The position numbers were made by a program, and so were the translations under genes. Below are positions 7,115 to 61,500 of a stretch of 64,000 bases of DNA, piece by piece (position 1 is the first letter of the stretch; the number at the start of each line of letters is the position of its first letter). The DNA comes from an uncultured Candidatus Saccharibacteria bacterium (GTDB taxonomy: Bacteria > Patescibacteriota > CAZHWT01), in contig CAZKPX010000003.1 in assembly GCA_964554805.1 (NCBI GenBank), positions 76,366-140,365 on the forward strand, read 5' to 3'. The notes below the pieces were generated by a model. It worked only from the letters and a program-made list of their open reading frames with translations. It did no database searches and was not told the DNA's origin.

Positions 7115-7142
7115 GCTGAATACACTCGACTCTCGGTCGAGT

Positions 7143-7178
7143 GACGGGCGACGGGCGACGGGCGACAAGCGACGAGCG
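7143..7178 (+). repeat. (GCGACR)n hexanucleotide microsatellite, intergenic copy
   Basis: acgggcgacgggcgacgggcgacaagcgacgagcg. Preceded by the hairpin cactcgac-tctcg-gtcgagtg. Confidence 0.85.
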
Positions 7179-9936: not shown

Positions 9937-10027
9937 GAGCGACGAGAACGAGCGACGAGCGACGGCTGGGATTCAATTCTCCCAGTTTCCTGCCAGCCAG
10001 GCCCGTCGCCCGTCGCCCGTCGCTCGA
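9937..10027. repeat. Inverted pair of (GCGACR)n arrays forming a long imperfect hairpin
   Basis: Forward gagcgacgagaacgagcgacgagcgacggctggg at 9937-9970 and reverse cccgtcgcccgtcgcccgtcgctcg at 10002-10027, with a central ctggga...tcccag hairpin. Confidence 0.75.
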
Positions 10028-31977: not shown

Positions 31978-32018
31978 GGCTGTCAAAGCGACAGGCGACA
32001 AGCGACAAGAACAAGCTA

Positions 32019-33245
32019 ATGGCATTTTTTACTATTTTGAAAACTGACACTAAAACCAAGGCTCGACGGGGAGTTATTTCGACGGAGCATGGCGATATTC
32101 AGACGCCGGCATTTTTTCCGGTGGGTACGCAGGGGACTGTTAAGTCATTGTCTCAGCAAGAGTTGTGGGATATGGGGGCGCGGTTGATTTTGGGTAATAC
32201 CTATCATTTATATTTGCGTCCGGGAGCTGATATTGTGGCAGAAGCGGGCGGTTTGCATGAGTTTCAGCAGTGGAAGGGGGCTTTGTTTACTGATAGTGGA
32301 GGGTTTCAGGTGTTTAGTTTGGGGTTGGGACTGGAGAATAAGCGACAGGCGACGAGCGACAGGCGACGAGAGGGGAGTCAGAAGGTGGATGCGATACGTC
32401 ATTTGCCTCAGGGGATGTTGGCTAAGGTGGATGAGGAGGGAGTAACTTTTAGGTCTCATTTAGATGGGTCGATTCATCGGTTTACGCCGGAGATTTCGTT
32501 GGCTACTCAGCATAAGATTGGCGCAGATATTATTTTGTCTTTTGATGAGTGTGCGCCGCATCCTGCCAGCTATGACTATACTCGTCAGGCAATGGAGCGA
32601 ACTCATCGATGGGCTAAGCGAGGACTTGATTATCATCAGGAGCATAAGCAGAGCCATCAGCATCTGTTTGGCATAGTGCAGGGTGGGGTGTATGAAGATT
32701 TGCGAGTGGCATCGGCCAAGTATATTGATAGCTTGGACTTTGATGGGTATTGTGTCGGCGGAGTATCAGTAGGGGAGTCTAAGGAGGAAATGGACAGGGC
32801 AGTTCGCTGGACCACGCCTTTGCTCGACCCGAGCAAGCCTCGACACTTGTTGGGAGTGGGGGATATTGATGATATGTTCAGAGGGGTGGAGCAGGGCATT
32901 GATACCTTTGATTGTGTGACACCGACTCGGTGGGGGCGCAATGGGACATTGATTGTTCACCCTGAAACAGCCAAAGAAGAAGGTTCGGCCAATCCGTATC
33001 GACTGATTATTACTAATAATAAATATCGAAATGACTTCCGACCGCTTGATCCACGCTCCGACAACTGGGCCAGTCGCACCTATAGCCGAGCTTACCTGCA
33101 CCATTTGTTTAGGGCTAGTGAAATCTTGGGTGTGCGGATTGCTTCTTATCATAATGTGGCGACGATGTTGCAGTTGGCTGAAAAGATGAGAGCCAGCCTA
33201 GAGGATGATAGTTGGGATGCTTTGAAGAAGGAATATTTGGTATGA
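32019..33245 (+). CDS. tgt: Queuine tRNA-ribosyltransferase with a repeat-encoded insertion and a degenerate zinc site
   Basis: Conserved motifs [27 protein letters not shown] and [9 protein letters not shown]. A 28 aa insert ([18 protein letters not shown]) is encoded by (GCGACR)n at 32335-32372. The CxCxxC zinc ligands are replaced ([11 protein letters not shown]). Confidence 0.85.
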   Translation: [408 protein letters not shown]

Positions 33246-34878: not shown

Positions 34879-37575
34879 ATGTTGTTATTAATTTTGGCAC
34901 TGTTTATTACCGGCACCATTTGTGTGGCATGGACTGTGGCTGGTAGACGAGTAGATGAGGATAAGGAGCCGCAAGAAGTGGTGGAAGGTACCTTGCTGTC
35001 TATTTTGGTGCCAAAAGAGAATGATAAGTCGCCAATGTCAGCTGAAATGATGTTTGCCTCACTGCATGGCTTGTTAAAGAGAACTCCTGGTTTGGAAGAA
35101 CATTTAAGTTTTGAAATTGTGGCCAACAACGACGGTATTCGGTTTTTTGTTTATTTGCCGTCGTATTTCCGAACTTTTGTCGAGGGCCAAATTTATGCTC
35201 AGTATCCCAACGCCAATATAGTTGAGGTAGAGCAAGATTATGCCAAGCACTTTTCGTCTGAGAAGGCTGTGGTGACTGCGGCTGAAATCTCTTTGAGTAA
35301 GGAGTATTTTTATCCTATTAAGACCTTTGTTGATTTTCAGGTTGATCCCTTGGCGGCCGTTACCGGAGCGGTGGAGAGATTGGAAGAAGGCGAGCAGGTT
35401 TGGATTCAGCTACTGCTTCGACCGCTGGACGATGTCTGGCAAGAAGCAGGTTACGCTTATGTAGAAAAAGTTAAAGCCGGTAAAAAAGAGTCACAAGATG
35501 GTTTTTTGATGGCTATTGTGAAGGGCGTGATGGGGGAGCTGGGTATGAATTTGCCGGGAACCGCTTTTGGGATGACGCCAGCTGAAGGGGCTGCTGCAGA
35601 TAAAAAGCCCGAAGGGCCAAAGTTGACGGCTGGTCAAGAGCTGGAGTTGAAGGCTATAGAAAATAAGATGACTAAGCTGGGCTTTGAAACTGCTTTGCGA
35701 ATTGTGGCAGTGGGCGAGACCGCTCAAGCTTCTCAACAATCACTTAATTCAGTTATTGCCTCGCTACGTCAATTTTCGATGACTCATCTTAATAGTTTTA
35801 AGTTATCCGAATTGGATCGAAGTGCCGAAGAGATTTTTTATGAATATCAAGCTCGATCTTTCCCGATTGATGAAGAGAGCTTCTTTGTCTTGAATGCTGA
35901 AGAAGTAGCTTCTATTTTCCATTTGCCAAATAGCTCAGTTGAAACGCCGACTATTGCCTGGAGCAAGTCTAAGCAGCTCGAGCCACCATTAAATCTGCCT
36001 CAAGATGTAAATACTGTCTTTGCTAAAACTGCTTTCCGGAATCGATCGGTACCGTTTGGTATACAGCGCGAGGATCGTCGTCGTCACATGTATATGATCG
36101 GAAAGACCGGTACTGGTAAGTCGACCTTGATGGAAAATATGATTATGCAGGATATTTTGGCTGGTGAAGGTTTGGCCATTATGGATCCGCATGGCGATAC
36201 TATTGATCGATTGCTGGACAATATTCCAGAGCACCGAATCAAAGATGTGGTGTTGTTTGACCCATCAGACACAGCGCATCCGGTCAGCATGAACATGTTA
36301 GAGATGATTAATGAGGAGCAGAAGAGCGTTATGGCTTCGGCCTTGGTGGATGTGTTTAAGCGGCGTTTTGACTCTTGGGGGCCTCGACTTGAATATTTGC
36401 TGCGTAATTCTATTTTGACATTGCTGGAAGTGCCAAATACGACTCTATTGGGCATTAATCGATTGTTGATTGATAAAGAGTATCGCAAATATATTGTGAG
36501 CTTGATCGAAGATGAGCAGTTGCGGAATTTTTGGAATAAAGAGTATGCGACCATGGCCTCTAATGATCGATTGATCACCGAAGCTGTAGCTCCGATTCAA
36601 AACAAGGTAGGTCAGTTCTTGCAGACGCCGATTATCCGCAATATTGTCGGTCAGGCCAAGTCGACTATTCGGGTTGAGGATATTATTAATGAGAATAAGA
36701 TTTTCTTGATTAACTTGTCCAAGGGTAAAATCGGTGAAGATAACTCGTCGATGTTGGGTGGAATGATTATTTCTCGCCTGCAGAATGCGGCCATGGCTCG
36801 AGTGAATATTCCCGAAGATCAACGTAAAGACTTTTATGTGTATGCTGATGAGTTCCAGAACTTTGCTACGTCCAGCTTTGCCACGATTTTGTCTGAGGCT
36901 CGTAAGTATCGTCTTAATCTGATTATCACTCACCAATATATTAGCCAGATGCCAGATGAGGTGCGGGAGGCTGTGTTTGGTAACGTTGGGACAACCGTTT
37001 CCTTTACGGTCGGACCAAGTGATGCGACGGTGCTGGCTAGTCAGTTTGCACCAGTATTGCAACCTGAGGATATGGTGCGGCTGGAGAAGCATCATATCTA
37101 TGTTAAATTGATGATTGATGGTATGGAGTCTCGTCCATTTAGTGCCTCGACTTTGCCGCCGATTGCTCGCCACGAAGGCCATAAAGCGGCTATCATTGAA
37201 GCTTCTAGGCTTCAGTATGCACCTAAAACAGCGGCTGAAGTGGAGGAGCGAATTGCCAAGTGGAATATGAAGAAGTTCCAGATTGGGGTAGACGATGTAT
37301 CGGTTAAGCGGATGCGAGATGGTTCGCGCGCAAATGCAGAAGAGGTCAAGGCATCTTCATTGCCAGCTAGTACAGATTCTATCATGCCTCCTCGTCACGA
37401 GCGAGTTATTGGGGCAGGTGGAGCAGAAGCACCTACGGTAGTCACCCCAACTATCATTCGGGGAGTTCCAGGTGGCGTTGGTCATACAACCGTTGTTCGG
37501 CATGTGGCCACTTCCGGATCTAGCGGCGAAATCATCTTGAATAATTCAATTAATCACACAGATACACCACAGTAG
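34879..37575 (+). CDS. VirD4/TraD/TraG-like (type IV coupling protein family) P-loop ATPase with N-terminal TM anchor and a roughly 400 aa unknown N-terminal domain
   Basis: Walker A MIGKTGTGKSTLMEN followed by IMDPHGD. Walker B FYVYADEFQNF, then ARKYRLNLIITHQYISQM (T4CP-type C-motif). One N-terminal TM. Confidence 0.55.
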   Translation: MLLLILALFITGTICVAWTVAGRRVDEDKEPQEVVEGTLLSILVPKENDKSPMSAEMMFASLHGLLKRTPGLEEHLSFEIVANNDGIRFFVYLPSYFRTFVEGQIYAQYPNANIVEVEQDYAKHFSSEKAVVTAAEISLSKEYFYPIKTFVDFQVDPLAAVTGAVERLEEGEQVWIQLLLRPLDDVWQEAGYAYVEKVKAGKKESQDGFLMAIVKGVMGELGMNLPGTAFGMTPAEGAAADKKPEGPKLTAGQELELKAIENKMTKLGFETALRIVAVGETAQASQQSLNSVIASLRQFSMTHLNSFKLSELDRSAEEIFYEYQARSFPIDEESFFVLNAEEVASIFHLPNSSVETPTIAWSKSKQLEPPLNLPQDVNTVFAKTAFRNRSVPFGIQREDRRRHMYMIGKTGTGKSTLMENMIMQDILAGEGLAIMDPHGDTIDRLLDNIPEHRIKDVVLFDPSDTAHPVSMNMLEMINEEQKSVMASALVDVFKRRFDSWGPRLEYLLRNSILTLLEVPNTTLLGINRLLIDKEYRKYIVSLIEDEQLRNFWNKEYATMASNDRLITEAVAPIQNKVGQFLQTPIIRNIVGQAKSTIRVEDIINENKIFLINLSKGKIGEDNSSMLGGMIISRLQNAAMARVNIPEDQRKDFYVYADEFQNFATSSFATILSEARKYRLNLIITHQYISQMPDEVREAVFGNVGTTVSFTVGPSDATVLASQFAPVLQPEDMVRLEKHHIYVKLMIDGMESRPFSASTLPPIARHEGHKAAIIEASRLQYAPKTAAEVEERIAKWNMKKFQIGVDDVSVKRMRDGSRANAEEVKASSLPASTDSIMPPRHERVIGAGGAEAPTVVTPTIIRGVPGGVGHTTVVRHVATSGSSGEIILNNSINHTDTPQ

Positions 37576-40761: not shown

Positions 40762-41559
40762 ATGGTAACAATTACATGGCCGAGGGTACGTATTGCTAAG
40801 CGCCAGAAGCTGGTTTTGTTGTCGATTGGCTTGACAGTATTGATGGCTGGTAGCCTGATTTTTAGTTGGCCATTATGGAGCGGCTTATTGTTGGTAGGTT
40901 TGGCTTGGGTAGGTTTGGCTTACTGTTTTGAGTGGGACTTGAAGGCGGAGGAGTGGCTATTAATTCCATTGCCGTTGTTAATGGCAGTTAGCGGAGCCTT
41001 TGGTTGGCTCCGATTGTACTCGGTGACGCCTTGGCTGGTGACTGTTGGCTGCTTGGCGTTTGGCATAGCAGTCTATGGACTGTTGCTGACGCTAAATATT
41101 ATTAATTTATCTCGAGTTAAAACGTTGCCATTGGCCAGAACTGCAACAAGCGTGTTGTCGATGGCCAGTCTGACAGTTGGCTTCTTATGGTATTATTTGT
41201 GGCTCTATTATCAGCCGGCTTATATAGTATGGGTGACTGGAGCGATTTTGATTAGTCTGGCTGTTGCTTGGCCGATTATATGGATTGCATTGACAGGGAA
41301 GATGGTAGTGTGGCGTAGTTTGGCCTGGCTGGGTTTGTTGGGACTGATTATGGGTCAATTGGCGGCTTTGGTGGGCTTGTGGCCGCGGTCATTTATGACT
41401 AGTTTATTTTTGGCTGGAAGTTTGTACCTGGTCTTGGGCGTCATCCATTATCAGGAGAAGCGGCAGGTTAATAAAATAATGAACCGTCAGTATACGGTGG
41501 TATTTGGCATCATGTTGGTAGCGTTGTATGTATTTACTAGTTGGTATGGTGGGATATAG
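40762..41559 (+). CDS. Hypothetical polytopic membrane protein
   Basis: 7-8 hydrophobic helices, Trp/Leu-rich, no motif recognised. Confidence 0.45.
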   Translation: MVTITWPRVRIAKRQKLVLLSIGLTVLMAGSLIFSWPLWSGLLLVGLAWVGLAYCFEWDLKAEEWLLIPLPLLMAVSGAFGWLRLYSVTPWLVTVGCLAFGIAVYGLLLTLNIINLSRVKTLPLARTATSVLSMASLTVGFLWYYLWLYYQPAYIVWVTGAILISLAVAWPIIWIALTGKMVVWRSLAWLGLLGLIMGQLAALVGLWPRSFMTSLFLAGSLYLVLGVIHYQEKRQVNKIMNRQYTVVFGIMLVALYVFTSWYGGI

Positions 41560-41939
41560 CAGCTAACCTCCGAGGTTCGGCGGTTAGGGCGACGAGCGAC
41601 GAGTACGCTTTGGGTATTTATCTGGGATAAGGGTGGGGAATAGAGGAGTTAATTGGCAGGGGGTGGGGAAGAGCGATAACTCATAGTTTTGTACTATAGG
41701 ACATATTTTCCATAAAAGTGAGCGTGGAAAGTTAATTTTGTGGATATCTTGGTTGAATGGAAGAAGTGAGCAGGAGGAGAAAACAGGGAAAAATGATACA
41801 GTATGATGCAGTTGGGTGAAGGATATTGAGGCGGAGTGGAGTGAGAGGGGTGATTGATAACGATTATTGATAATTGCTATAGGTCTTCTTTTAACAAGGA
41901 TTGAGCTCAAGGGCGCAATCTAGGCAAGTTATGAATATA

Positions 41940-43080
41940 CTATAGGGTATTTGTTTACTCAAAAAAAGAGTGGTGACTGGAGAGAGTGGAAGTGGTGGAT
42001 AGGGGTAAAAAAATTGGCAAAAATTTGGATGAATTTGGCTTTGACTGGGCAGATAAGGCGAAAATAAACGAAATTTTTGGGAAAATTTTACGAATTTTGA
42101 GGCTAAAACCTAAAATTTGTCAGGACGATAGGTGGACTGCTAATGATAAGCGTATGGATGAGGATATATGGAGCTGATCGACTGGCTGATTAGATAGTTT
42201 AGTTGAGGCTAAAACTCGATTTAGGGGCTCAGGTGTAGGAAGAGTTGGGCCGCATTAGGAATGAATTTTATGGTGGATTGGTATATGGTGGACCTCTCTC
42301 GCTCTGCTGGCGGCCGAGAGAGGTGGTCTTGTAGCCTACTACACGTCTCTAAAGATACATTTAAAGACGTCTTATTTAATTTCACAAATCAGCTCTCCCC
42401 TATGGATTTTGTTACATACAAGACTGCAAATATTTACTAAAATTTTCGATACTATTTGGCCTTTCTGCGGCTGGTCCACTAGCCTCAAAATGCTGTATCT
42501 GAAAAATTATCGAAATTTTGCCAATCTGTTCCCTATTTGAGGCTAAGCTTCGGTAATTTGGGTGATCGTTGTGCGAATTTGTGGCTAATTTAGGCCGTTT
42601 TGCCCGACCTCTCTCCCCTGCTCGGCAGCTTTTAGCAGGTAATACTGCCCTGGTGCTGGCAATTTTAGGCACAACTGGCAGGCTGGTCGTCTTGCCTGCC
42701 AAGGGGTTGCGCAGGGGGATGGTTACCAAAGCTTGTTAAGAGCTTTGGTGAGTGACGGGCGACGGGCGACGAGAGGGTGTGTGGATAGTAGGATTTGGGC
42801 TGTTTTTTATTCGGGATGCGTATCAACACGTCGCTTGTCGCACGTCTCTGGATTTTTTAGCCTTGTGACAGCTAAATTAGGTAGCGAGGCGCTAGAAGGG
42901 GTCTAGATGGCGTTTTGGTAATTTAGACCTTTCAATATACCTATTTGGTTTTAATTTGAGTGGCATATTCTCCTGCATGTATGAATTATGATGATTTTGA
43001 GACATGAGACATGCCTAGCTGACCTCCGGAAGTGTCTGAGATCGCTTGCATCTTGACGGCTGACGCTTTACCCTAGATAC
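41940..43080. other. 1.1 kb non-coding stretch upstream of the recombinase, carrying at least 6 copies of a TTTGAGGCTAA(AAC) motif in both orientations plus short hairpins
   Basis: ttgaggctaaaac at about 42105 and 42203, tagcctcaaaatg at about 42481, ttgaggctaagc at about 42537, related ggctaatttagg and ggcaattttagg, hairpin cctctctcg...cgagagagg at 42292-42322. Only weak small ORFs. Confidence 0.5.
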
Positions 43081-44073
43081 ATGTCTGCTGTTAAGCCATT
43101 GGTTACTGACTTTATTGAATACTGTGAATTAGAAAAGAACTTGTCGCAGGGGACGGTTCAGATATACGACTTTTATCTAGGGCACTTTGATGAGTGGTTA
43201 GATAAGACTCAGGGGGCGTCGACAACGGTTGAGGATATAACCTACGACATGGTTAAGGATTATCGATTATTCCTGACTAGGCAGGTTAGCGAAGTGACTA
43301 GGCACGGGTTGAAGCGGTCGTATCAGAACTATTTCTTGGTAGCTATCAGAGCTTTTTTAAAGTTTCTAGCTAAGCGTGGCTATACGGTGCTGTCGTCTGA
43401 CCAGGTGGAGCTGGGGAAACAGGGAGATAGAGTGGTTAAGTTTTTGGATGATAGTCAGCTACAGAGGCTCCTAGAGGCTCCAGATACCACGACCATAGAG
43501 GGGTTGAGGGATAGGGCAATTCTTGAAACTTTATTCTCGACGGGTTTGCGTATTGCGGAGTTGGTTGGGTTGAATAGAGACTCAATTAACCTTGATAAAC
43601 GTGAGTTTGGCATAATAGGCAAGGGGAGAAAGGCTAGAGTAGTGTTCCTGACGGAGACATCTTGTTATTGGCTGGAGCGTTATCTGAGGCTGCGTAAGGA
43701 TGATTACTCTCCCCTTTTTATTCGCTATAAGGGCAAGAAGCACCAATTGGATGATAAAAAGGGTGAAGATCAGCGATTAACGACTCGGTCGATGGCTCGG
43801 ATGGTTGAAAAATATGTCAAACAGCTGGGTCTGCCGGTTAAGGCCACGCCGCATACTTTGAGGCATAGTTTTGCGACTGATTTATTAATTAACGGAGCTG
43901 ATTTGCGGAGTGTTCAGGAGTTGCTAGGGCACTCTAACATTTCGACAACTCAGATATATACTCACGTTACAAATAGTCAATTGCGAAATGTTCACAGTAA
44001 GTTCCATAGTGGGAATGCCTCTCCGTCAGATGGCGGGTCGGAGCGACCGACGACCAGCGACGAGGACGAGTAG
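43081..44073 (+). CDS. Tyrosine site-specific recombinase (XerC/XerD/integrase family) with a repeat-encoded acidic C-terminal tail
   Basis: Catalytic R (GLRIAEL), HTLRHSFAT (H-x-x-R), LGHSNISTTQIYTHV (nucleophile Tyr). The tail ...SERPTTSDEDE is encoded by cgaccagcgacgaggacgag. Confidence 0.8.
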   Translation: MSAVKPLVTDFIEYCELEKNLSQGTVQIYDFYLGHFDEWLDKTQGASTTVEDITYDMVKDYRLFLTRQVSEVTRHGLKRSYQNYFLVAIRAFLKFLAKRGYTVLSSDQVELGKQGDRVVKFLDDSQLQRLLEAPDTTTIEGLRDRAILETLFSTGLRIAELVGLNRDSINLDKREFGIIGKGRKARVVFLTETSCYWLERYLRLRKDDYSPLFIRYKGKKHQLDDKKGEDQRLTTRSMARMVEKYVKQLGLPVKATPHTLRHSFATDLLINGADLRSVQELLGHSNISTTQIYTHVTNSQLRNVHSKFHSGNASPSDGGSERPTTSDEDE

Positions 44074-44152
44074 GGGTCTTCTCTACTCTCAGCGATAGAG
44101 ATCTCACTGAAGTGACTTGCTTGCTTGATGAGTATTAGGTTAGGATAGAGGC

Positions 44153-45772
44153 ATGAAGCGATCTCGAATTGGCTTAGTTGTGGTTGGTAGTTTGATTTTG
44201 AATATGGTGTTTATGCTGCAGCCAGTTGGAGTTGAAGAGGTTGCGGCTGTGTGGCCAGGTTACCCAAGCCAGCTTGTGTTTAATTCTAATAGGGATGGCG
44301 ATCAGGAGATTTATACATCAAAGATTGATGGTCAAGGGCTGCTTCAGCTGACTAATAATAGTGCGAGCGATACTAGCGCCGAGTTTTCACCAGATGGACA
44401 AAAAATCGTATTTGTCTCCAATCGCTCTGGGCCTAGTGAGATTTATATTATGGACAGTGATGGGGGTAACCAACAGGCCATAACTAGCAATGGAGTGGAA
44501 GCAGAGCACCCTTCCTGGTCTCCTGACGGATTAAAAATAATTTTTTACGCTGCCATTGGGGGTAATAATGATATTTACAGTATTGACCTTAATGGTTCAA
44601 ACCAAACTCGATTAACTACTGAATCGAGCCAAGAGCGCTATCCTGCTTATTCTCCAGACGGGACTAAAATTGTGTATAGGTCGCGTCAGGGCGTGAATAC
44701 TCATTTAGTTGTCATGGAGGCAAATGGATCAAGCAAGGTGACTCTTTATAGCGTCAGTAATGCCTATCTGGAGGCACCTCAATGGTCTCCTGATGGACAA
44801 GCTATTTACTTTCATAGTAATTCATCGGGTAGCTACGACATATACAGATTTCAATTAAGTAATAGTGAGGTAACTCAGCTGACGGATGATGGTTTTTTGA
44901 ATGAACGGCCATTCCCTTCGGCGGATGGTAAATCAATCTACTTTAGTTCTGATAAGATTGGTAGTTTGCGGCAGATTTTTGTGATGAATACTGATGGCTC
45001 CGATCAGGCTAGAGTGATTGCAAGTTCTTACAATGATGCTAGGCCCAAAGTATTCTCGCGGCCTAATGTGCCTCCGGTGCTAGGGAGTAAATTGTTGTCA
45101 GTATCCTCTAGCTCTAGCCAGCTAGTTGATGTTCTGGTAGGTGCTACCGACGAAGAACTATTGCCTGGCTCCAATCTGACTATCATTACTCTGCCTTCTC
45201 ATGGCTCGGCGATTATTGAGTCGGGCAAGATTAGATACACTGCTGGAGATACTTATGTTGGCGCAGATAGTTTGGAGTATCGAGCGTGCGACTCATTTAT
45301 GCTGGATCAAAAATGCAGCATAAAAACGCTTGGCATTACTGTAACGCCTAGACTTAGCGTGAGTAAGATTGGCGGTGCGGAGACTGACGGTAGTTCTAGG
45401 GTTGTCAGCGCGACCAATAAGCCAACCTTCTCTGGTTACACCACTCCCTTGGCCGAAGTCAAAGTTGAAATTCATTCTGACCCAATTATCCTAACTACTA
45501 CTGCAGATAGTGAAGGCTACTGGTCTGTTACTCCCACCTCTCCTATACCCCCTGGGAATCATACCGTTTATATTTCCTCTACTTTGAATGGTCAAACCAC
45601 TCAGTTGGATTCGTTTGTGCTTGGTATTTCGAGCACTATCCCAAACACTGGCGCAGATTATGATTGGTGGCGATATGGTGGAGTGGGTTTGACCATAGCT
45701 GGTTTGGGTAGTTTGTATGTGATTCGCCGACGCAGAAAGTTTGTTTCGCAGATTCCCCAATTATTCCCGTAA
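44153..45772 (+). CDS. Secreted surface protein: signal peptide, PD40/TolB-like beta-propeller repeats, Ig-like C-terminal region, (I)PNTG-type C-terminal sorting signal
   Basis: Repeated DxxPxWSPDGxxIxF blades. C-terminus TIPNTGADYDWWRYGGVGLTIAGLGSLYVIRRRRKFVSQIPQLFP, read as motif, TM, basic tail. Confidence 0.6.
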   Translation: MKRSRIGLVVVGSLILNMVFMLQPVGVEEVAAVWPGYPSQLVFNSNRDGDQEIYTSKIDGQGLLQLTNNSASDTSAEFSPDGQKIVFVSNRSGPSEIYIMDSDGGNQQAITSNGVEAEHPSWSPDGLKIIFYAAIGGNNDIYSIDLNGSNQTRLTTESSQERYPAYSPDGTKIVYRSRQGVNTHLVVMEANGSSKVTLYSVSNAYLEAPQWSPDGQAIYFHSNSSGSYDIYRFQLSNSEVTQLTDDGFLNERPFPSADGKSIYFSSDKIGSLRQIFVMNTDGSDQARVIASSYNDARPKVFSRPNVPPVLGSKLLSVSSSSSQLVDVLVGATDEELLPGSNLTIITLPSHGSAIIESGKIRYTAGDTYVGADSLEYRACDSFMLDQKCSIKTLGITVTPRLSVSKIGGAETDGSSRVVSATNKPTFSGYTTPLAEVKVEIHSDPIILTTTADSEGYWSVTPTSPIPPGNHTVYISSTLNGQTTQLDSFVLGISSTIPNTGADYDWWRYGGVGLTIAGLGSLYVIRRRRKFVSQIPQLFP

Positions 45773-45809
45773 GCTTGCCCGCTAGATAGGTATGCTTTAT
45801 CATAGATAC

Positions 45810-47429
45810 ATGAAGCGATCCCGGATTGGCTTGGTTGTGGTTGGTAGTTTGATTTTGAATACTATGCTTATGCTCCAACCTGCTGGAATACAGGAGGTTG
45901 AGGCGGCGTTTTCTGGGTATAACGGGAGAATAGCTTTTGAGACTAATCGTGACGGCAATAGTGAAATATATATGATGAATGAGGATGGCTCAGATCCTAG
46001 GAGGCTAACGAATAACTCATCGATGGATACTGCTCCAACATGGTCTCCGGATGGGAGCAAGATAGCGTTTGTCTCTAACCGAGATGGTAGTAACGAAATT
46101 TATGTAATGGATTCTGATGGGAGTAATCAGCAGAGGCTGACCAGTGATGCATATAGCAATAGTTCTCCTTCTTGGTCTCCAAGCGGGGATAGGGTAGCTT
46201 TTACTTCAAATGCCGAAGGCGGTAGTCAGATTTTTACTATTGATACTAATGGGAATGGGCGCAGTCAGATTACAAGTGGTCCTGCAAGTAAATACAATAT
46301 CTCGTGGCATCCAGGCGGGCAGTCATTAATTTATCAAGGATCTCTCGCAGGTAATAATGACGTATGGACTGTGAGTATAGGCGATAGTCTTGAAGAGAAT
46401 ATTACCAATACTCCCAGCTCAGGTGAGCAGATTCCTAGATGGAGTCCTGATGGACAAAGAATTGTATTTACTTCCAACAGGGATGGGAATAATGAAATAT
46501 ACACAATGAACGCAGATGGAGGTGATTGGGTTCGTATTACGAATGATCCAGCAAATGATAACGGTGCTTACTGGTCCCCTGATGGAAATAAGATTGTATA
46601 TCACACTGATATCCCAAACCTTAATCTTGATAAGAACATCGTAGTCAGCAATTCTAGTGGTACTACAAAGGAAATTACAACAACTAATCCCACCAACGAC
46701 TTAAATCCTCAATGGCAACCCATCCCCAATACCTCACCAGTCCTAGCTGCTGCGGCCCTATCTGTTCAATCTGGCTCTGCTCAGAGTGTTGATGTTTTAA
46801 CGGGTGCGACTGATGAGGAGGCCCTGGAGGCTGCCAATGTAAGCCTTGTCAGTCAACCTGCCTATGGCACGGCTGGTGTTGAGTTGGGCAAGGTTGTGTA
46901 CACTGCTAGCACCGCCTATGTCGGTTCGGATAGTCTGCAATACCAGGTCTGCGATTCGTTTATGCTGGATCAGAAATGTTCGACTCAAACACTTGGCATT
47001 ACAGTGACTCCTTGGTTGAGTTTGAAGGAAGTCGGTACTGTCGCGACTGATGGTTCGGGTAAAGTCATCTCCCCTTCTAGCAAGCCAACCTTTTCTGGCT
47101 ATACGACTCCCCTGGCTGAAGTGAAAGTTGAAATTCATTCAGATCCAATCATTCTGACTACTCAGGCTAATGGCGATGGCTACTGGTCTGTTACCCCTAC
47201 CTCTCCTCTACCCTCAGGCGATCATACTGTTTATATCTCCTCAACACTCAATGGTCAGACAACCCAGCTAGATTCGTTTGTCTTGAGTGTTCAGACAACG
47301 ACCCCTAATACTGGTGCCGATTACACTCTTGTGCGAGGGGTGGGGGCGGGTCTGGTTGGTCTAGGGGCTCTCATCTTAGCCGCAGCATTAAGACGCCGAG
47401 GGCCTAAGGTGTCCCCTCTATCTCTATAA
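45810..47429 (+). CDS. Paralogous secreted PD40/TolB-like beta-propeller surface protein with TPNTG C-terminal sorting signal
   Basis: Same architecture as 44153-45772. The C-terminal 150 aa are near-identical (FSGYTTPLAEVKVEIHSDPIILTT...LNGQTTQLDSFVL). Start set at MKRSRIG. Confidence 0.6.
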   Translation: MKRSRIGLVVVGSLILNTMLMLQPAGIQEVEAAFSGYNGRIAFETNRDGNSEIYMMNEDGSDPRRLTNNSSMDTAPTWSPDGSKIAFVSNRDGSNEIYVMDSDGSNQQRLTSDAYSNSSPSWSPSGDRVAFTSNAEGGSQIFTIDTNGNGRSQITSGPASKYNISWHPGGQSLIYQGSLAGNNDVWTVSIGDSLEENITNTPSSGEQIPRWSPDGQRIVFTSNRDGNNEIYTMNADGGDWVRITNDPANDNGAYWSPDGNKIVYHTDIPNLNLDKNIVVSNSSGTTKEITTTNPTNDLNPQWQPIPNTSPVLAAAALSVQSGSAQSVDVLTGATDEEALEAANVSLVSQPAYGTAGVELGKVVYTASTAYVGSDSLQYQVCDSFMLDQKCSTQTLGITVTPWLSLKEVGTVATDGSGKVISPSSKPTFSGYTTPLAEVKVEIHSDPIILTTQANGDGYWSVTPTSPLPSGDHTVYISSTLNGQTTQLDSFVLSVQTTTPNTGADYTLVRGVGAGLVGLGALILAAALRRRGPKVSPLSL

Positions 47430-47584
47430 TACTCAGCCTATAATATCGCTATTATGATAGTAATAATTCAGGGTTGAACCCTGAGGTTAGCTTTTGTGTC
47501 GTTTTAGGTAATGGCAAATTCAGCCTATGATGAGTTCAGGCTGGCTTGACTCATGCCTGCCTGTTTGGGTAGAATGAGGCATAG

Positions 47585-50053
47585 ATGCGGTTATTTTTGA
47601 ATTCATTTGATATTGGCCATTTTGGTACCAGGCAGTTTCTGGTGGCTGTTTTGCTTAGCCTTATGATGGTGAGTGGTTTGCTGGCTTTGCCGGTTGCTCA
47701 AGCGGACTACTCTACTCCGGACGCGACTTTGAAATGGAGCACTTTGGATGTCCCGGGGGGAGATGTGTCTCGAGCCTGGTCAACAGCTGCCTCTTCGGCA
47801 GATGGTTCGGTTTTGCTCGTTGGTTATAATGGCGCTTACTCCATGCATCGCTCGATTGATAGTGGTCTAACCTGGACGGAGGTTGGACCGGCTGTCACTT
47901 ATGGCACCTTTCCTTGGCGCAGCTTTGCCATGTCGGCTGATGGTCAGGTAATGCTGGCGGGTGATGCGTATCGCCTGTACCTCTCTTCTGATATGGGCGA
48001 TAATTGGACTGAGGCAAGACCGGTTGGAGATGTCAATCTTCATTGGGGGAATGTAGCCATGTCGGCTGATGGCCAGGTAATGTTGGCAAGCGTTAATGAT
48101 GTCGGTGGCCGGTTGTATTATTCGACTAACCAAGGCCAGGACTGGCAAGAAGTTCAGCCGGCTGGTGATGTTGATCGATACTGGCGAGGTTTGGCTGTGT
48201 CAGCTGATGGCCAGGTGATGCTGGCTGGCGCCTCGGGCGGTCGGTTGTATCGGTCGGTTGACGGCGGGGACAGTTGGGTTGAGATGCAGCCAGCGGGTAA
48301 CGTTAATAGATTTTGGTTGACTACCTCTATGTCGGCTGATGGTCAGGTAATGTTGGCTGGGTCTGTAGCCGCCACAGGTCGGTTGTATCGGTCGGTTAAC
48401 GGCGGGGATAGTTGGGTTGAGATGCAGCCAGCAGGTGACGTTAATGTTAGCTGGTGTCGCAGTCGGGTATCTGCCAATGGTCAATCTATGCATATAAGCT
48501 ATGGTTGTGACAGTGGTGGGGGTCGGTTGTATCGGTCGGTTGATAGTGGAGGTAGTTGGCTCGAGATGACTCCGATCGATGGTGGCGCTTATATGTGGAT
48601 GGCTATAGCCGCTAGCGATGATCAGCAGACAATAATAGCTGGTGTGTCTTTTGGTCATGTATATCTTTCGCATAATAGTGGCCAAACCTGGTTGAAGATC
48701 AGGCCATATGGCCAGCATGGTAATGACTGGAGATCCTTGGCAGTATCTGACAATGCCCGGGTGCTATTTGCCGGCTCAACTGGTGGCGGTGGCAGTGGGC
48801 GACTCTATCGTTCTATTGATAGAGGCGTTGCGTGGGCTGAGGTTCGGCCGGCTGGTGACGTTGGTGCAAATTGGAGTGATGTAGCATTGTCGGCTGATGG
48901 TCAAACTGTACTGGCTGTTGCATCGGGCAAAAGACTATATCGATCACAGGATGGCGGCAATAGCTGGGCGGAAGTGCGTCCAATAGGTAATGTTGACGCT
49001 GCTTGGTGGCGTGCAGCTATGTCAGCTGACGGGCAGATTTTGTTTGCCAGTGTTTCTGGTGGTCGACTATATCGCTCGCTGGATGGAGGTGATTCGTGGA
49101 CTGAAATTCAGCCGGCCGGTAATGCTAACTATGCGTGGCAGCAACTGGCGACTTCGACAGATGGCCAGGTTGTTTTTGCAGGTGTCTTTGCCGGACGCAT
49201 TTATAAAAGTGGTAATACGGGAGATAGCTGGACTGAAGTTCAGCCGGCCGGTGATGTTAATATTTACTGGGTAGATCAAGGAGTGAGTTTGTCGGCTGAT
49301 GGTCAGCGTGTTTTTGCTGTAGGTGGCGGTCACGTGTATCGCTCTGTGGATGGTGGCAATGTATGGGCTGAAGTGCAGCTGTCGGGTACCTGGTGGTCGA
49401 CTGTATCGCAATCCAGGGATGGGCTGCGGGTACTCTTGGGGTCGTTTCCGGGGCGATTGTATGGCTCGACAGATGGAGGTGACAATTGGTCTGAAGTAAC
49501 GCCAATAGGTGATAAATTGGGGCTCTGGCAGCTAGTCCGACTGGCCTCGGATGGTAAGAAGATAGTTGCGGCGGCCAGCATGGGGCGGGTTTATTTGGGC
49601 ACTTTGACGCCGACGGCCCCTGGCTTGACTATAGCGGCCAATACGGTATTTGATCCCACTCAGTCTGCCTCAAGTACCGCTTTGACCGGCACAGCGCCGG
49701 TTGGAGCGACCGTGGAGGTTGAAGTGCACTCGACGCCACAATCCGGGGTGGTGACGGCTGACGGGAGTGGCCATTGGTCATGGTCTCCGCCGCTGCCGCT
49801 GGAGCCGGGAAGCCATCAGTACAGAGCTCGGATTTTGGATGACGATATTGAGGGCGATTGGAGCGATTGGGTGAGTTTTCAGGTTCTAGGAGTGACGGAT
49901 TCCGGTGATGAGTCATCTATCCCCAATACCGGAGTAGACTATTGGTGGTGGAGAGTTGGCGGTTTACTTGTGTTTGCGGCTGGCTTGAGCTTGCTTGGGT
50001 ATGTTCGCAAGTATAGGCGCTTTCCTTTGGTGCCGGACCTGTTCCCACGGTAG
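47585..50053 (+). CDS. Secreted BNR/Asp-box-repeat (Ycf48/sialidase-like beta-propeller) surface protein with IPNTG C-terminal sorting signal
   Basis: About 14 repeats of (R)LY(R)SxDGGxSW(T/A)E spaced roughly 45 aa apart. Signal peptide with AQA. C-terminus SSIPNTGVDYWWWRVGGLLVFAAGLSLLGYVRKYRRFPLVPDLFPR. Confidence 0.65.
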   Translation: MRLFLNSFDIGHFGTRQFLVAVLLSLMMVSGLLALPVAQADYSTPDATLKWSTLDVPGGDVSRAWSTAASSADGSVLLVGYNGAYSMHRSIDSGLTWTEVGPAVTYGTFPWRSFAMSADGQVMLAGDAYRLYLSSDMGDNWTEARPVGDVNLHWGNVAMSADGQVMLASVNDVGGRLYYSTNQGQDWQEVQPAGDVDRYWRGLAVSADGQVMLAGASGGRLYRSVDGGDSWVEMQPAGNVNRFWLTTSMSADGQVMLAGSVAATGRLYRSVNGGDSWVEMQPAGDVNVSWCRSRVSANGQSMHISYGCDSGGGRLYRSVDSGGSWLEMTPIDGGAYMWMAIAASDDQQTIIAGVSFGHVYLSHNSGQTWLKIRPYGQHGNDWRSLAVSDNARVLFAGSTGGGGSGRLYRSIDRGVAWAEVRPAGDVGANWSDVALSADGQTVLAVASGKRLYRSQDGGNSWAEVRPIGNVDAAWWRAAMSADGQILFASVSGGRLYRSLDGGDSWTEIQPAGNANYAWQQLATSTDGQVVFAGVFAGRIYKSGNTGDSWTEVQPAGDVNIYWVDQGVSLSADGQRVFAVGGGHVYRSVDGGNVWAEVQLSGTWWSTVSQSRDGLRVLLGSFPGRLYGSTDGGDNWSEVTPIGDKLGLWQLVRLASDGKKIVAAASMGRVYLGTLTPTAPGLTIAANTVFDPTQSASSTALTGTAPVGATVEVEVHSTPQSGVVTADGSGHWSWSPPLPLEPGSHQYRARILDDDIEGDWSDWVSFQVLGVTDSGDESSIPNTGVDYWWWRVGGLLVFAAGLSLLGYVRKYRRFPLVPDLFPR

Positions 50054-50267
50054 GTTTAGGATTTAGTCTGAAGCTGAATACCCTGTGCTCTAAGCCATAA
50101 GTCCTCATCCCTCTGCCGGTTTAAAATTGCTCCAGCTTGGTTTGACCGCAGGTCTGAACATTAGGTATAAATCTTCGCGATTAATGCAAGCTCCGAGAGC
50201 ATTAGTCTTGGAGCTTGTTATGGTTGGTTGTTGTTTACCAATACTGCACTACTCTGCTACAATAACT

Positions 50268-50507
50268 TGTATGTCTGAAAATACTGAAAAAAACTCAAAC
50301 CACTGGCAGGAATTGGCTGATACCCCAGTGCTTCGCTCAACAGAAAAAGCTCAGCCGGTCGAGATGAAAGTCAAACTGACTCATGGAGTGTGGTTTGGGA
50401 CGGCTATGGGGATTGGTTTTGCCATCGGTTTTCTGGTGTCCTTCCTGATTCTGGTGGGTATTGTCGGTTTCTTTGTTTACTCACGCTTCCCTGGTTTATT
50501 TAGCTAG
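50268..50507 (+). CDS. Small tail-anchored membrane protein (hypothetical)
   Basis: 79 aa from the internal ATG. Single C-terminal TM (FGTAMGIGFAIGFLVSFLILVGIVGFFVY). No SD, so weak. Confidence 0.3.
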   Translation, partial: CMSENTEKNSNHWQELADTPVLRSTEKAQPVEMKVKLTHGVWFGTAMGIGFAIGFLVSFLILVGIVGFFVYSRFPGLFS

Positions 50508-53257: not shown

Positions 53258-54757
53258 TTAGAGCATGGGTAATGGTTTGGTCGAAGCGTTTCTGGCCATT
53301 TGATGATAAGCTTGATTGTCTATTTGTGGTGGCGACCAGTCTACCAGCTCCTGAGGAGAAATCGGTCTGCCAAGCCAAGCAGTAGCCTGTTCTTGGTCAT
53401 GCAGCAGTTCGTAGGCTTGACCATTTTTGAATACAATCATAGGTAGGCCAAAGAACTGGGCTGTTTCGGCTATGTTTTGCATGGTTATGGACCTCAGATT
53501 ATCCCGTTCGGCTAATCCGCGTTGCCAGAGGATATCGGTCATGGCGATAGACTGGTCTTGATTTAGGTTAACCATAGGAGCTTGGTCGAGATTGACAAAA
53601 GTCGCTGCAACCCGTGTTTGGCTGACTATGACTTCGTTGTATCTCTGTTTTGATCCCTGGGCTAGAGCTGCTGATAGTCTCTGCTGATATTCTTCAACTG
53701 ACCCAACACTGGTCGTCCTTCGATTCTCTTGGGTGGCTTGACTGCCTTTGTCGAAAGCGGCTGCATCCTCGATTGTTCCGCTGTTGAGAACCAGGCCGAA
53801 ATTATCCCACAGCTGAATCCGACTGTCGCCCGAACCTGGTCGGAAGGTTGAGGCGCAGATAGAAGGGTTTTGGGTCAAGAGGTAGGCTATTCTTTCCTGG
53901 TAGCTACTTTGATTATTGATATTCTGGTTGTTGCCGAAACCAATATCGAATTCTGGTTTGACTGCATGGACTATATAGTGACCGTTGGCTAGAACAAGAG
54001 ACTCCAGGCTGCCGTGAGCCTGTTTGTACTCTTCAAGCTGATGGCGGTTGTATTGTTTTTTCTGATCGACTTTCCAACCAAGCGCAATCTGTTGATAGTA
54101 TTGGTCGAGATAGGCTTGGCTATCAGCGTAAAATGATTGCTGGTTAGCTTTAATTCTCTGTAATTCTTCATGATAGTAGGCGGTTCTATACAATTCTTGC
54201 TTGATGCCCGCTTGATGTTCTAGGGTGCTGGCTTGTTTTTGTGATTCGGCCAGGGCTTGCCGGTGTTCTTCGATAGGAAAATTACGGAACTTGTCCATTA
54301 TCCGCTTGACCAGGCTGGTTTCATGGTCTTGAATGAGATTGCTGATCTCGGCGGCTTGCTGCTCATATGCCAGCTTTTCGTTTCGGATAGTCTCCAGAGT
54401 ATCTCTATCCTGTTGTGACTGGCTCTGTATGCTCTGCTCGCGCCTGCGATCTTGAGCTCTGTCTCTGCGCATCGTTTGCAGCCTTTGGGCTACGTCATTA
54501 CGAGAAACTGGGCCAGCATAGACGCCTTGGTACAGGCTATCCTGCTCTTTAGAGAACTGGCGCAGCTGGTTTTTGGAAGGTTTAGGGATAGAATGTTGCG
54601 ATTCGCGATTCATGATGAAGTAAGTGCGTTTTAAGTTTAGCATGCCAACCGAGTCGGAGTCAGTTGTTGCTGTGCTTTTTGACAGACTGATATAAATTTG
54701 GGTAGTTATGACCTGCTTCTTTGTTGCCAAGTAGGGGCAACAGAAGTACAATGACAC
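53258..54757 (-). CDS. Hypothetical Gln-rich protein
   Basis: Long ORF with coiled-coil-like Q/E/R-rich middle section. No motif recognised. Start probably at an internal Met (MLNLKRTYF or MNRESQH). Confidence 0.35.
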   Translation of the reverse strand: MSLYFCCPYLATKKQVITTQIYISLSKSTATTDSDSVGMLNLKRTYFIMNRESQHSIPKPSKNQLRQFSKEQDSLYQGVYAGPVSRNDVAQRLQTMRRDRAQDRRREQSIQSQSQQDRDTLETIRNEKLAYEQQAAEISNLIQDHETSLVKRIMDKFRNFPIEEHRQALAESQKQASTLEHQAGIKQELYRTAYYHEELQRIKANQQSFYADSQAYLDQYYQQIALGWKVDQKKQYNRHQLEEYKQAHGSLESLVLANGHYIVHAVKPEFDIGFGNNQNINNQSSYQERIAYLLTQNPSICASTFRPGSGDSRIQLWDNFGLVLNSGTIEDAAAFDKGSQATQENRRTTSVGSVEEYQQRLSAALAQGSKQRYNEVIVSQTRVAATFVNLDQAPMVNLNQDQSIAMTDILWQRGLAERDNLRSITMQNIAETAQFFGLPMIVFKNGQAYELLHDQEQATAWLGRPISPQELVDWSPPQIDNQAYHQMARNASTKPLPML

Positions 54758-58559: not shown

Positions 58560-58570
58560 GGGGGGGGGGG
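58560..58570 (+). repeat. G11 homopolymeric tract in the translation-initiation region of the giant Cys-repeat protein
   Basis: atgcgctac followed by 11 G, then tgcttctcggcc. The ATG at 58551 is in frame 0, the long ORF in frame 1. One additional G, or a loss of two G, would fuse the ATG to the ORF. Confidence 0.8.
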
Positions 58571-61500
58571 TGCTTCTCGGCCTGGTTTTTCTTGGACTGC
58601 TTGGTTTTGTCTGGTTGTCTAGTGTGTCTCCGACTATTTCTCTGACTAAAACTGTTTTTCTGGCTTCGGAGTCTGTAACGGCTGTGATGGCCCATGCCTC
58701 TGCTGATAGACTGAAGGCTGAGGTGGTGACCAGTGATGGGGATAAGACGGGCCTGGCGGTTGAGGTGACGGCCTCTGGCTCGGATGCTCTGTTGACGATT
58801 CCGGCTTTGCGGGCGTTGACCCCGGGTGGGTATGTGCTAAAGGTGACGGATGCTGCTGGCCGCCAGTATAGTCAGGATTTCTCTTGGGGTGTTTTGGCGC
58901 TCAATATGACCAAGTCGGTGTATGCTTCCGGAGAGACGGTTGAGGTGCAGATGGCGGTTTTGAATCAGCGCGGGGCGATGGTGTGTGATGCTGAGGTCAG
59001 GCTGGTTATTACCTCGCCGACCGGCAAGAGTCAAACGCTTTCGACAACCGAGGATCGCATAAAGGTTAATCCATCCTGCACAGTTAAAGATTTTACTGAG
59101 GAGCCTGATTATGAGGCTTCGTTTGAGGTGGCGGAGCCGGGGCGCTATGATTTGAAGTTGACGGCGGTGACGGCTGATGATTCATTTACCATTACTGATA
59201 CTTTGACGGTTCAGCAGCCAGTTGCCGATCCGCTGATTATTACCCGACAGTCGGCCACCCGCATTTATCCGGTTAATACCTATCCGGTTCATATGACGGT
59301 GACAACCACTGAGGATTTTAACGGAACTATTACCGAGACAGTCCCCTACTCTTTTGAGATTTCACCATTGGAGGAGACTGTCTCTTATTCGTACGAACAG
59401 TTTAACCGTAAGGGCGCAGTTAACGAACAATACAAGCAGCTGCACTGGCAGGATGTGTCACTAAAAAAAGGTCAGTCTATAACCCTAGGCTACCAGTATG
59501 ACGCGCCCAATGAGTCGCCTAATTTCTTTCTAGCCGGACCACTGAGTGCTACCACCTCCGACCTCCAATCTCCTGCCTCCTATTTCACCGAACCCCGCTC
59601 CTGGCAAATAGCCGTCGACGCTGTGCTGACGGCTATTGAGCAGCAGATTACTATTACGAATCAAGCCTACCAAACCAACTCCCAATCCCCTGCGCCGACG
59701 GATAATTCATTGGGGTTGGTGCAGTGGGATGAAGCTGCTTATTCTAATGCGGAGGTGTATTTGGAGGCTAGGCTTGGACAGCAGCAGTCCGCTCCTTATA
59801 TGGGGGATATAACCAGTCATGCGACCATGGATTGTCCAGCGGCTGATGATTGTAAGATTGCTTATTATGATGCTGTGGGAGGAGATCTGCGATTTAGGGA
59901 TTGTGACGATGCTGTCTGCTCGACTGGAACGATAGTACTGCTTGATGGTAATGTGGGGTGCGTCATGGCCAATTGTTCCACCATAGCCAATGTGGGGCAG
60001 TTTGCTTCTATAGATTGTCCAGCGGCTGATGATTGTAAGATTGCTTATTATGATACAACCAATCAGGATTTGCGCTTTATTGATTGCAATGATGGGACTT
60101 GCTCGACGGGGACTAATGCATTGCTGGACGGTCGGGCAGGGTGTGTGTTGACTGGGTGTGCCGCTTCGGGGGATAGGGGGGCTGGCGTTTCTATCGACTG
60201 CGTTGCCTCTAGTGACTGCAAGATAGCTTACCAGGATACAACCTCAACGGCGCTGCGTTTTGCTGACTGTAATACAGCTGGCTGTAGTTCGGGTGTGGTG
60301 TCGTTGTTGGATGGTGTTGCTGGGTGTGTGTTGACTGGGTGTGCCACACTTGGTTCAAGTGGCCAGTATCAGTCGATTCGTTGTCTGGCCACAGATGACT
60401 GTAAGATTGCTTACTATAGCGCAACCCTTCAGCATCTCCGCTTTGCCGATTGTGATACCGCCAACTGTAGTGCTGGTACGGTGGTAGAAATAGATGGATC
60501 TGCAGGATGTGTGTTGGAAGGATGTTTGACTAACAATATTGGAATGTATGTTTCGATGGATTGTTTGGCTACCGATGACTGTAAGATTGCTTATTATGAT
60601 ACTACTGGATCTGATCTGAGATTTGCTGATTGTGATACTGCAACCTGTTCTTCCGGCTTTTCGACATTGATTGATGGAGGGGCTGGATGTGTTCTTTCGG
60701 GATGCGTAAACACAAATACCCTGGGTCGGTATCCAGATATCAGCTGTGTTGCTAGTGACGATTGCAAGATCAGCTATGGTCATTATAGTAGCTTCTTGTT
60801 TACTTATAGCACGCTACTATTTGCTGACTGCGATACTTCCAGTTGCTCGTCTGGCTCTGTCTCAATTTTGGATAATCGAGGATCGTGCGTTTTGACCGGG
60901 TGCAATCCCAGCACCACAGGCTCGCAGGCAACTAATAGTTCGATCATCTGTATGGCTAGCGATGATTGCAAAGTGAGTTACACTAACCCCCACTTCGACA
61001 GTCTCCATTTTGCTGACTGTAGCGCGGCTAATTGCTCATCCGGACAGACGACTTTGGTGGATGGAGCATATAAGCCATTCATGCTCGGGCGACCAAGTAT
61101 GAGCTGCCCCCAGTCGGATAACTGCAAGATTATTTACCTTACGAATTCAAAAAGGGACGGCTCAGAGCGCTTGCTGAAATTTAAGGATTGTGATGATGTT
61201 CAATGTGATACTGGAACAATCGTGGTTCTGGACGGTGCAATGAGTTGCATGTTAGATAATTGTTCTGATAGCCGGAGAGTTGGTCAGAATATGTCTTTAG
61301 ACTGTCCTAGCTCTGCTAATTGCAAAATTACTTACTATGATGAGACTAACATGGAATTACGATTTGTCAATTGTAACGGTGAGGTTTGTGGGGCAGGAGC
61401 GACAATCTTGATTGACGGTGGCCCTGACTGCGCCTTGGCTAATTGTGTGTCTGGTCAAGATATTGGTGATTTCCCTGCGCTTGATTGCCCGACTGCAGAT

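Follow-up and report, generated by a model that had tools for sequence, protein, structure and literature searches.

C-terminal sortase signals are usually described as ending in a few basic residues, and we know of no function for anything that lies beyond these residues. The signals of the exosortase, archaeosortase, rhombosortase and myxosortase systems likewise combine a motif with a membrane helix and a basic cluster. In the standard sortase mechanism, the motif is cleaved between Thr and Gly and the protein is transferred to lipid II (PMC4617865). The motif variant IPNTG is known from two pilus proteins: it serves the S. agalactiae pilin GBS80 as sorting motif (PMC3166054), and in B. cereus BcpB the pilus sortase cuts it at the Thr, whereas sortase A does not (PMC8225981). 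A literature search on other motif variants returned nothing relevant. Here we analyze a 64,000-nucleotide stretch of DNA (hereafter the window) from an uncultured Candidatus Saccharibacteria bacterium, in which three consecutive genes, PD40-A, PD40-B and the gene of a BNR/Asp-box protein (Table 1), encode secreted propeller-repeat proteins ending in [I/T]PNTG, a membrane helix, a basic cluster and a proline-containing tail. Judged from their sequences, these signals are members of the LPXTG class and constitute a distinct subtype, whose apparently new elements are an Arg at a fixed distance from the Gly and, at the C-terminus, a conserved P-x-L-F-[P/S] extension that goes with motifs of the IPxTG type.

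The four open reading frames (ORFs) that an earlier note on this DNA had reported, a tyrosine recombinase followed by the three secreted propeller-repeat proteins, are all present at their reported positions, and each of the three large proteins has the signal-peptide-like N-terminus ascribed to it, with a predicted basic N-region, hydrophobic core and A-x-A-like site. Their C-termini read letter for letter as quoted in that note, IPNTG, TPNTG and IPNTG standing 44, 42 and 44 residues from the C-terminus in PD40-A, PD40-B and the BNR protein, respectively. A six-frame scan of the window finds PNTG near the C-terminus only in these three ORFs, each time followed by a hydrophobic stretch and a basic cluster. 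Two generalizations drawn from the three signals hold in part. The residues after the Gly, said to be always A or V and then DY, are so in the three window genes but not in a fourth paralog outside the window, P0001 (145 aa, carrying IPNTG...RRKRQSDIPVLFP), where they are ATS, nor in homologs, where they are ADS, ADA, APT or SNT; the gene of P0001 appears to lie on the same contig as the window, since its protein cluster and those of the window proteins have the same longest contig (165,250 bp). The PxLFP tail attributed to all three proteins is found in PD40-A and the BNR protein but not in PD40-B, which ends in VSPLSL. Endings of the form P.LF[PS] occur in 3 of the 466 window ORFs of at least 50 codons, all three in this block, and the set includes a small membrane protein encoded just downstream, which has no sortase motif.

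Several lines of evidence place these signals in the LPXTG class. TIGR01167, the LPXTG_anchor model of NCBIfam with a curated cutoff of 15.9 bits, scores PD40-A at 17.8 bits as a whole protein and at 22.7 bits as an isolated signal; of ten signals of the [I/V/T]PxTG type scanned in isolation, taken from window proteins and homologs, eight reach the cutoff, and TIGR01167 is the best or second-best model for most signals. Sister proteins with the same PD40+Big_9+Big_13 architecture, one of them from a Thermomicrobiales metagenome-assembled genome, have LA[D/E/S]TG at the equivalent site; a Berkelbacteria genome contains five tandem surface-protein genes whose products end in LAATG, a helix and basic residues and have only a Big_13-like stalk in common, and a CPR3 genome encodes one stalk-sharing protein ending in LPETG. 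Since these homologs carry LAxTG, LAATG or LPETG in the same place, the position is a slot for a sortase motif. On a 468-kb metagenome contig, a protein homologous to the BNR protein, with 30% identity over 761 residues, has SAPNTG, a helix and KRR at its C-terminus. The earlier reading of the C-termini as sortase-type tripartite signals thus appears sound, both from the TIGR01167 matches of most signals and from the LAxTG and LPxTG motifs of the homologs.

With the signals recognized by TIGR01167, those of the window type share the P/T/G pentapeptide, the hydrophobic helix, the basic cluster and the position at the C-terminus of a Sec-exported protein, but they differ in having I, V or T at position 1, an Arg fixed 7 residues after the Gly, and 8-17 residues after the start of the basic cluster, usually ending in P-x-L-F-[P/S/I]. 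Wherever TIGR01167 matches, the match stops at the basic cluster, and the tail is covered by no curated C-terminal sorting model in NCBIfam release 20. The LAxTG signals of the sister proteins, which are of the class E sortase substrate type, occupy the equivalent site but have short basic tails without PxLF. GBS80 and BcpB have the identical pentapeptide, which in BcpB confers selectivity between sortases; however, both are Firmicutes pilus subunits encoded beside their sortase, whereas the window block encodes propellers and neither a sortase nor a shaft pilin, and no PxLFP-type tail is mentioned for them in the consulted passages of the two papers. The non-canonical first position emphasized in the earlier note is therefore only partly a distinguishing feature: I and T are indeed present there, but I is no novelty, as IPNTG was already known and TIGR01167 recognizes most of the signals. 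The proline-containing extension after the basic cluster, on which the same note had also insisted, is real and is kept in homologs about 40% identical.

A total of 25 signals from the window and its homologs could be parsed, 14 of them of the [I/V/T]PxTG type and seven of the LAxTG type. Among the former, an Arg lies exactly 7 residues after the Gly in 13 of 14, and P-x-L-F-[P/S/I] is found within two residues of the C-terminus in eight (PQLFP, PDLFPR, PVLFP, PRLFP, PSLFP, PPLFPQA, PSLFS and PSLFI), while degraded tails are seen in three (PHISP, SSILP and SRILSP). None of the seven LAxTG signals has a P-x-L-F ending (Fisher p = 0.018 for tail versus motif type, uncorrected for relatedness). 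The tail carriers are 35-45% identical to PD40-A, and their contigs range from 46 to 62% GC. The tail is kept even where the helices that separate it from the motif have become dissimilar, which argues that it is under selection and not merely of recent origin. The subtype may be written as [I/V/T]-P-x-T-G with an Arg after six further residues, followed by a Gly-rich helix, a basic cluster and, ~5-12 spacer residues later, most often a C-terminal hydrophobic residue plus P-x-L-F-[P/S/I]. A profile of the 45-residue signal, too short a query for the size of the database, gave 33 word candidates in a set of 5.8 billion proteins, none of them with an expectation value (E) ≤ 10. A stalk-plus-signal profile gave 3133 matches among 1.84 billion representatives, of which the best 150 are mostly giant multi-Ig adhesins and yielded three useful homologs. 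Scans of genome and metagenome contigs returned distant relatives only, and those of viral contigs and plasmids no match.

From the gene structures, domains and signal anatomy, and from a tail that is conserved and goes with one type of motif, we infer sortase cleavage, attachment to the wall and some role of the tail. The host cell is probably bounded by a single membrane and a peptidoglycan wall. Each protein would be exported by Sec via its N-terminal signal peptide and retained there through the helix and the basic residues at its C-terminus. A sortase, its gene lying in another part of the genome, would then cut [I/T]PNTG between Thr and Gly and join the protein to a peptidoglycan precursor, so that a propeller binding some ligand would be displayed beyond the wall on its Ig-like stalk. 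We regard this course of events as likely, if well short of certain. The tail would be cytoplasmic and stay with the cleaved remnant, and would most likely be a second recognition or handling element, acting in the choice of partner or sortase or in the clearance of the remnant.

Several findings weigh against such a wall-anchoring pathway. The main gap in the argument is the missing sortase, which was found neither in the window nor in the 5.8 kb upstream of it. No window ORF of at least 100 aa contains the motif [TS][LIVM]x[TS]C, and no sortase Pfam domain is present in 35 window proteins (from genes from 16.2 kb onward and five public calls at 0.9-5.7 kb), the approximately nine genes at 5.8-15.6 kb being covered by the sortase motif scan only. 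Nor was a sortase Pfam domain found in the public gene calls of the homolog loci that were fetched; the plasmid-like loci among these have three non-canonical [TSV][LIVM]x[TS]C matches, in short ORFs. PD40-B has no TIGR01167 match, and the BNR signal reaches 15.6 bits, 0.3 bits under the cutoff. Two IPATG homologs have short C-termini without the tail altogether. Finally, all tail carriers except the small membrane protein share a homologous stalk; the conservation of the tail is therefore partly due to common descent, and the Fisher test overstates the independence of the signals.

The missing sortase, in the 64-kb window as in the extra 5.8 kb, would be accounted for if the signals belonged to an undescribed sorting system in which IPNTG and PxLFP are read by another membrane enzyme. 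The absence of the tail from all sorting models of NCBIfam release 20 points in the same direction, as does the presence, ~1.5 kb upstream of the recombinase, of a 265-aa multi-pass membrane protein without a family match (40762-41559). We nevertheless hold such a system to be improbable, as TIGR01167 passes for most signals, the P, T and G fit the sortase consensus, homologs have LAxTG or LPxTG at the same site, and IPNTG is cut by known sortases. An exosortase-like role of the 265-aa protein was rejected, this protein matching no exosortase or rhomboid model even at E ≤ 1.

The same low probability is given to plain membrane anchoring by the C-terminal helix without any cleavage, with IPNTG and PxLFP inherited but of no current function. 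That all carriers share a homologous module of stalk and signal would fit such inheritance, and so would PD40-B, which has decayed both at position 1 (T) and in its tail. However, P, T and G are kept in homologs 35-45% identical with diverged neighbouring residues and helices, 13 of the 14 signals retain the Arg at +7, and the motif lies in a linker that is probably disordered, where conservation indicates selection.

Very slightly more improbable is a third possibility, that the IPNTG proteins are substrates of a pilus-type (class C-like) sortase and the propeller proteins tip or accessory subunits of a covalently assembled fibre instead of monomers anchored to the wall. Both characterized IPNTG signals are pilin signals, that of BcpB being cut by the pilus sortase but not by sortase A, and two signal types, IPxTG and LAxTG, coexist within one protein family; yet the stalk domains are generic Big_9 and Big_13, and the block contains no sortase and no shaft pilin recognizable by its domains, pilin and E-box motifs not having been searched directly.

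That the tail goes with IPxTG and not with LAxTG in one family points to an extra discrimination between substrates or to a handling of the remnant. We can entertain, as a speculation that is more doubtful than probable, that the tail is a second, cytoplasmic address label pairing some sortase substrates and at least one small membrane protein without a sortase motif with a dedicated partner, in a new sorting subclass that would be spread by plasmid-like elements among uncultured single-membrane bacteria. The partner may be a specialized sortase, a membrane chaperone or localization factor, or a system that senses or clears the remnant. In practice, the signals provide one more model of a C-terminal sorting domain, and a sequence pattern by which surface proteins, and the enzyme that sorts them, can be sought in little-known uncultured bacteria; the conceptual gain is modest unless the tail has a dedicated partner. 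Surface propellers on stalks are, in addition, plausible candidates for attachment to a host or to particles.

Table 1. Features of the surface-protein block and its surroundings, in window coordinates.
Feature	Position	Strand	Description
Stretch without convincing gene, 1.5 kb, upstream of recombinase	41560..43080	.	Longest ORF 108 aa
Xer-like tyrosine recombinase, 330 aa	43081..44073	+	Pfam Phage_integrase, E 7.5e-43; SAM-like N-terminal domain
PD40-A, 539 aa	44153..45772	+	PD40, Big_9, Big_13 (Pfam)
PD40-A sorting signal	45638..45769	+	IPNTG-ADYDWWR, membrane helix, RRRRK, C-terminal FVSQIPQLFP
PD40-B, 545 aa, tandem paralog of PD40-A	45792..47429	+	PD40, Big_9, Big_13 (Pfam)
PD40-B sorting signal	47301..47426	+	TPNTG-ADYTLVR, membrane helix, RRRG, PKVSPLSL
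BNR/Asp-box protein, 822 aa	47585..50053	+	Sortilin-Vps10, 13 Asp-boxes, Big_13-like stalk
BNR protein sorting signal	49919..50050	+	IPNTG-VDYWWWR, membrane helix, RKYRR, FPLVPDLFPR
Small membrane protein, 78 aa from chosen ATG	50271..50507	+	Hydrophobic stretch, then YSRFPGLFS at end
(GCGACRR)n arrays, first part	7141-7173, 9952-9963, 10005-10023(-), 18966-18991, 19194-19219, 28564-28589		
(GCGACRR)n arrays, second part	31988-32006, 32342-32367, 41589-41600, 42752-42770, 42830-42841(-)		

The true start of PD40-B is likely Met7 (at 45810), because from there its predicted signal peptide aligns with that of PD40-A. A terminator-like hairpin (47467-47485) and a promoter-like site (47546-47575) lie just 5' of the BNR gene, and a second promoter-like site (50234-50263) just 5' of the gene of the small membrane protein, which is 95 aa long in the public gene call as opposed to the 78 aa counted from the ATG at 50271. 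The flanking genes in the window are housekeeping genes (YebC, PBP1a, RNase HII and ClpB).

The two PD40/TolB-like propellers announced by the earlier note are supported both by Pfam, in which PD40 (PF07676) matches PD40-A with E 3.4e-40 and PD40-B with E 3.7e-44, and, for PD40-A, by structural comparison. An AlphaFold model of PD40-A built from 18 homologs (mean pLDDT 84.3) predicts a helix at residues 3-21, a six-bladed propeller and two beta-sandwich domains, followed by a low-confidence, probably disordered linker containing IPNTG, a helix at residues 504-530 and a low-confidence tail. The modelled propeller superposes on TolB (4r40/1c5k) with a Foldseek E of ~4e-20 and a root-mean-square deviation of 2.1-2.3 A over ~270 columns. 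The likeness to TolB is one of the six-bladed propeller fold only, as the PD40 proteins are without the TolB N-terminal domain and have instead an Ig-like stalk and a wall anchor. The TolB model TIGR02800 scores ~204-205 bits against a cutoff of 343, and its best stretches align to profile positions ~241-418, in the propeller part only. An identity as TolB or a Tol-Pal component was consequently rejected, from the score below the equivalog cutoff and the lack of an N-terminal alpha/beta domain; the PD40 proteins are probably not part of Tol-Pal, and the cell is probably single-membraned.

The BNR protein had been credited with about 14 BNR/Asp-box repeats. The repeat type is correct, and the count is 13 Asp-boxes of the form S-x-D-x-G-x-x-W, with a period of ~44 residues. 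Pfam Sortilin-Vps10 matches this protein with E 2.7e-28, and NF045728 (F510_1955-type glycosylhydrolase) scores it at 152.2 bits, under its cutoff of 175. No relative was found in the PDB by sequence, and a single-sequence AlphaFold model has a pLDDT of 37.

PD40-A and PD40-B are 50% identical overall, and the identity varies by segment: 39% in the propeller, 58% in Big_9, 76% from Big_13 to PNTGADY and 28% in helix and tail. The near-identical 3' thirds once ascribed to the two genes are thus not seen, the best protein segment reaching 76% and the best DNA stretch 79% over 243 nt. Three independent short-read contigs of the same strain that carry PD40-A all break inside PD40-B. One of them stops after 140 codons, the other two after 445 codons, within the PD40-A-like stretch, and this shared position fits an assembly that was interrupted by a repeat.

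The composition of the window sets the two PD40 genes apart. G exceeds C on the + strand throughout (GC skew ~+0.1 to +0.4), and at third codon positions most genes of the + strand have values of +0.2 to +0.66 and those of the - strand the mirror image, so that the asymmetry follows the DNA strand and not transcription. A comparable strand disparity has been reported for the Microgenomates order UBA1400 (PMC7143001), which is a hint as to lineage, and the organism is similar in composition to CPR/Microgenomates genomes. No other of the 40 genes has a third-position skew as low as PD40-A and PD40-B (0.12 and 0.075; z = -2.7 and -3.0) or a GC3 as low as theirs (0.39); the composition of the BNR gene is unremarkable. 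Five homologs of the PD40 proteins are encoded in plasmid-like contexts, with genes for Replic_Relax, Phage_rep_O, ParA, TraG/HerA-like, M78/ArdC and toxin-antitoxin proteins and no tyrosine recombinase in any of the five; one further homolog lies among metabolic genes, and another contig carries three tandem PD40 paralogs. The proposal of a horizontally acquired block is accordingly supported in part for the PD40 pair, on account of its outlying composition and of homologs in plasmid-like contexts, but not for the recombinase, which is typical of the genome, or the BNR gene. It is quite conceivable that the pair was acquired later, out of a mobile pool.

The gene set that recurs with a PD40+Big_9+Big_13 protein in these plasmid-like contexts was seen in loci L015-L017, L018, L009, L022 and L024, with Replic_Relax present twice in L015 and L018 and a GC content of 53-62% in L009, L015 and L018. 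Locus L015 also contains a 115-aa ORF ending in LFPGTG, a helix and HHRR, which may be a second sortase-type substrate. In the window itself, a gene for an 898-aa TrwB/TraG/DUF87-type ATPase lies at 34879-37575, ~6 kb upstream of the block, with the YebC gene between the two; the ATPase is ~25% identical to the products of coupling-protein-like genes on the plasmid-like contigs with PD40 homologs. PrgB of pCF10 is an LPXTG-anchored adhesin of a Gram-positive conjugative plasmid. The plasmid-like context of the PD40 homologs recalls adhesins of this kind, but there is no sequence relationship, and the block in the window is flanked by the housekeeping genes YebC, PBP1a and RNase HII.

The recombinase upstream of the block is of the Xer/integrase type, as the earlier note had stated: the catalytic R..K..HxxR..H..Y residues can be read in its translation, and it has the Pfam domains PF00589 and PF02899. 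Its best NCBIfam matches are XerC (244.6 bits, cutoff 335) and XerD (241.5 bits, cutoff 330), far above the integron-integrase and invertase models, the latter reaching 42.6 and 38.2 bits where 221 and 222 are required; a Xer subfamily model gives 238.6 bits (cutoff 279). Because these scores lie under the equivalog cutoffs, the protein is classified by sequence as Xer-like and not assigned to XerC or XerD. No dif-core-like site was found in the window, although the consensus of this lineage may differ, and dif need not lie near xer. The inverted repeats expected on both sides of the block as recombinase targets were not found: no inverted or direct repeats of at least 14 nt bracket it, and the only inverted repeats found, six pairs of 14-18 nt, do not enclose any of its genes or promoters. 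The third-position GC skew of the recombinase gene (0.467, z = 0.02) is typical of the genome, no recombinase is found beside homologs in any fetched locus with visible upstream sequence, and the junction of recombinase and PD40-A has the same orientation in three independent assemblies that span it.

An island or invertible cassette worked by the adjacent recombinase and generating surface variation, as first proposed, is therefore very improbable: the adjacency of the recombinase, the atypical composition of the PD40 pair, the homologs on mobile elements, the mosaic identity of the paralogs (conserved ends and a diverged propeller) and a stretch of 16 nt shared before the recombinase and PD40-B starts would suit it, but the lack of bracketing repeats of at least 14 nt and of a dif-like site in the window, a recombinase of native composition that scores as Xer and not as an invertase or phage integrase, mobile contexts without a tyrosine recombinase and the same orientation in three assemblies do not. 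The recombinase is most likely a resident chromosomal enzyme that adjoins the block by chance, and no functional link between the two was found. Nearly the same 16 nt, GCTTTAYCMTAGATAC, stand before the recombinase start codon and before that of PD40-B at Met7 (43065-43083 versus 45794-45812, 17 of 19 positions identical including the ATG), and the match may be due to chance or to a shared leader element.

The non-coding stretch upstream of the recombinase had been called repeat-rich, a description that does not hold: Tandem Repeats Finder (TRF) detects no tandem repeat in it, and only three short (GCGACRR)n arrays and some hairpins are present. The stretch stands out in a window that is elsewhere dense with genes, and it has no Rfam match even at E ≤ 1. 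Its 3' half (42240-43080) folds into a structure more stable than that of shuffled sequences (z = -3.3, 20 shuffles), compared with z = -1.5 for the 5' half, and the stretch could correspond to an unannotated RNA or to decayed genes.

Arrays of (GCGACRR)n, made of n = 1-4 full units and a closing GCGAC, are scattered in the window, in which the pattern has 27 matches as against 0.46 expected from shuffles. Of the 11 arrays, nine belong to the + strand and seven are intergenic. The other four fall within called ORFs and code there for stretches such as ATGDGRQAT; among these four is an apparent in-frame insertion in a tRNA-guanine transglycosylase gene.

Two other ORFs, one of 1625 aa (58570-63447) and one of 499 aa (53258-54757, - strand), have no Pfam domain. 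Their third-position skew is also unusually low: corrected for strand, it is 0.15 for the 1625-aa ORF and 0.22 for the 499-aa ORF, and these two and the ORF at 16225-16791 (0.207) come next after the PD40 pair.

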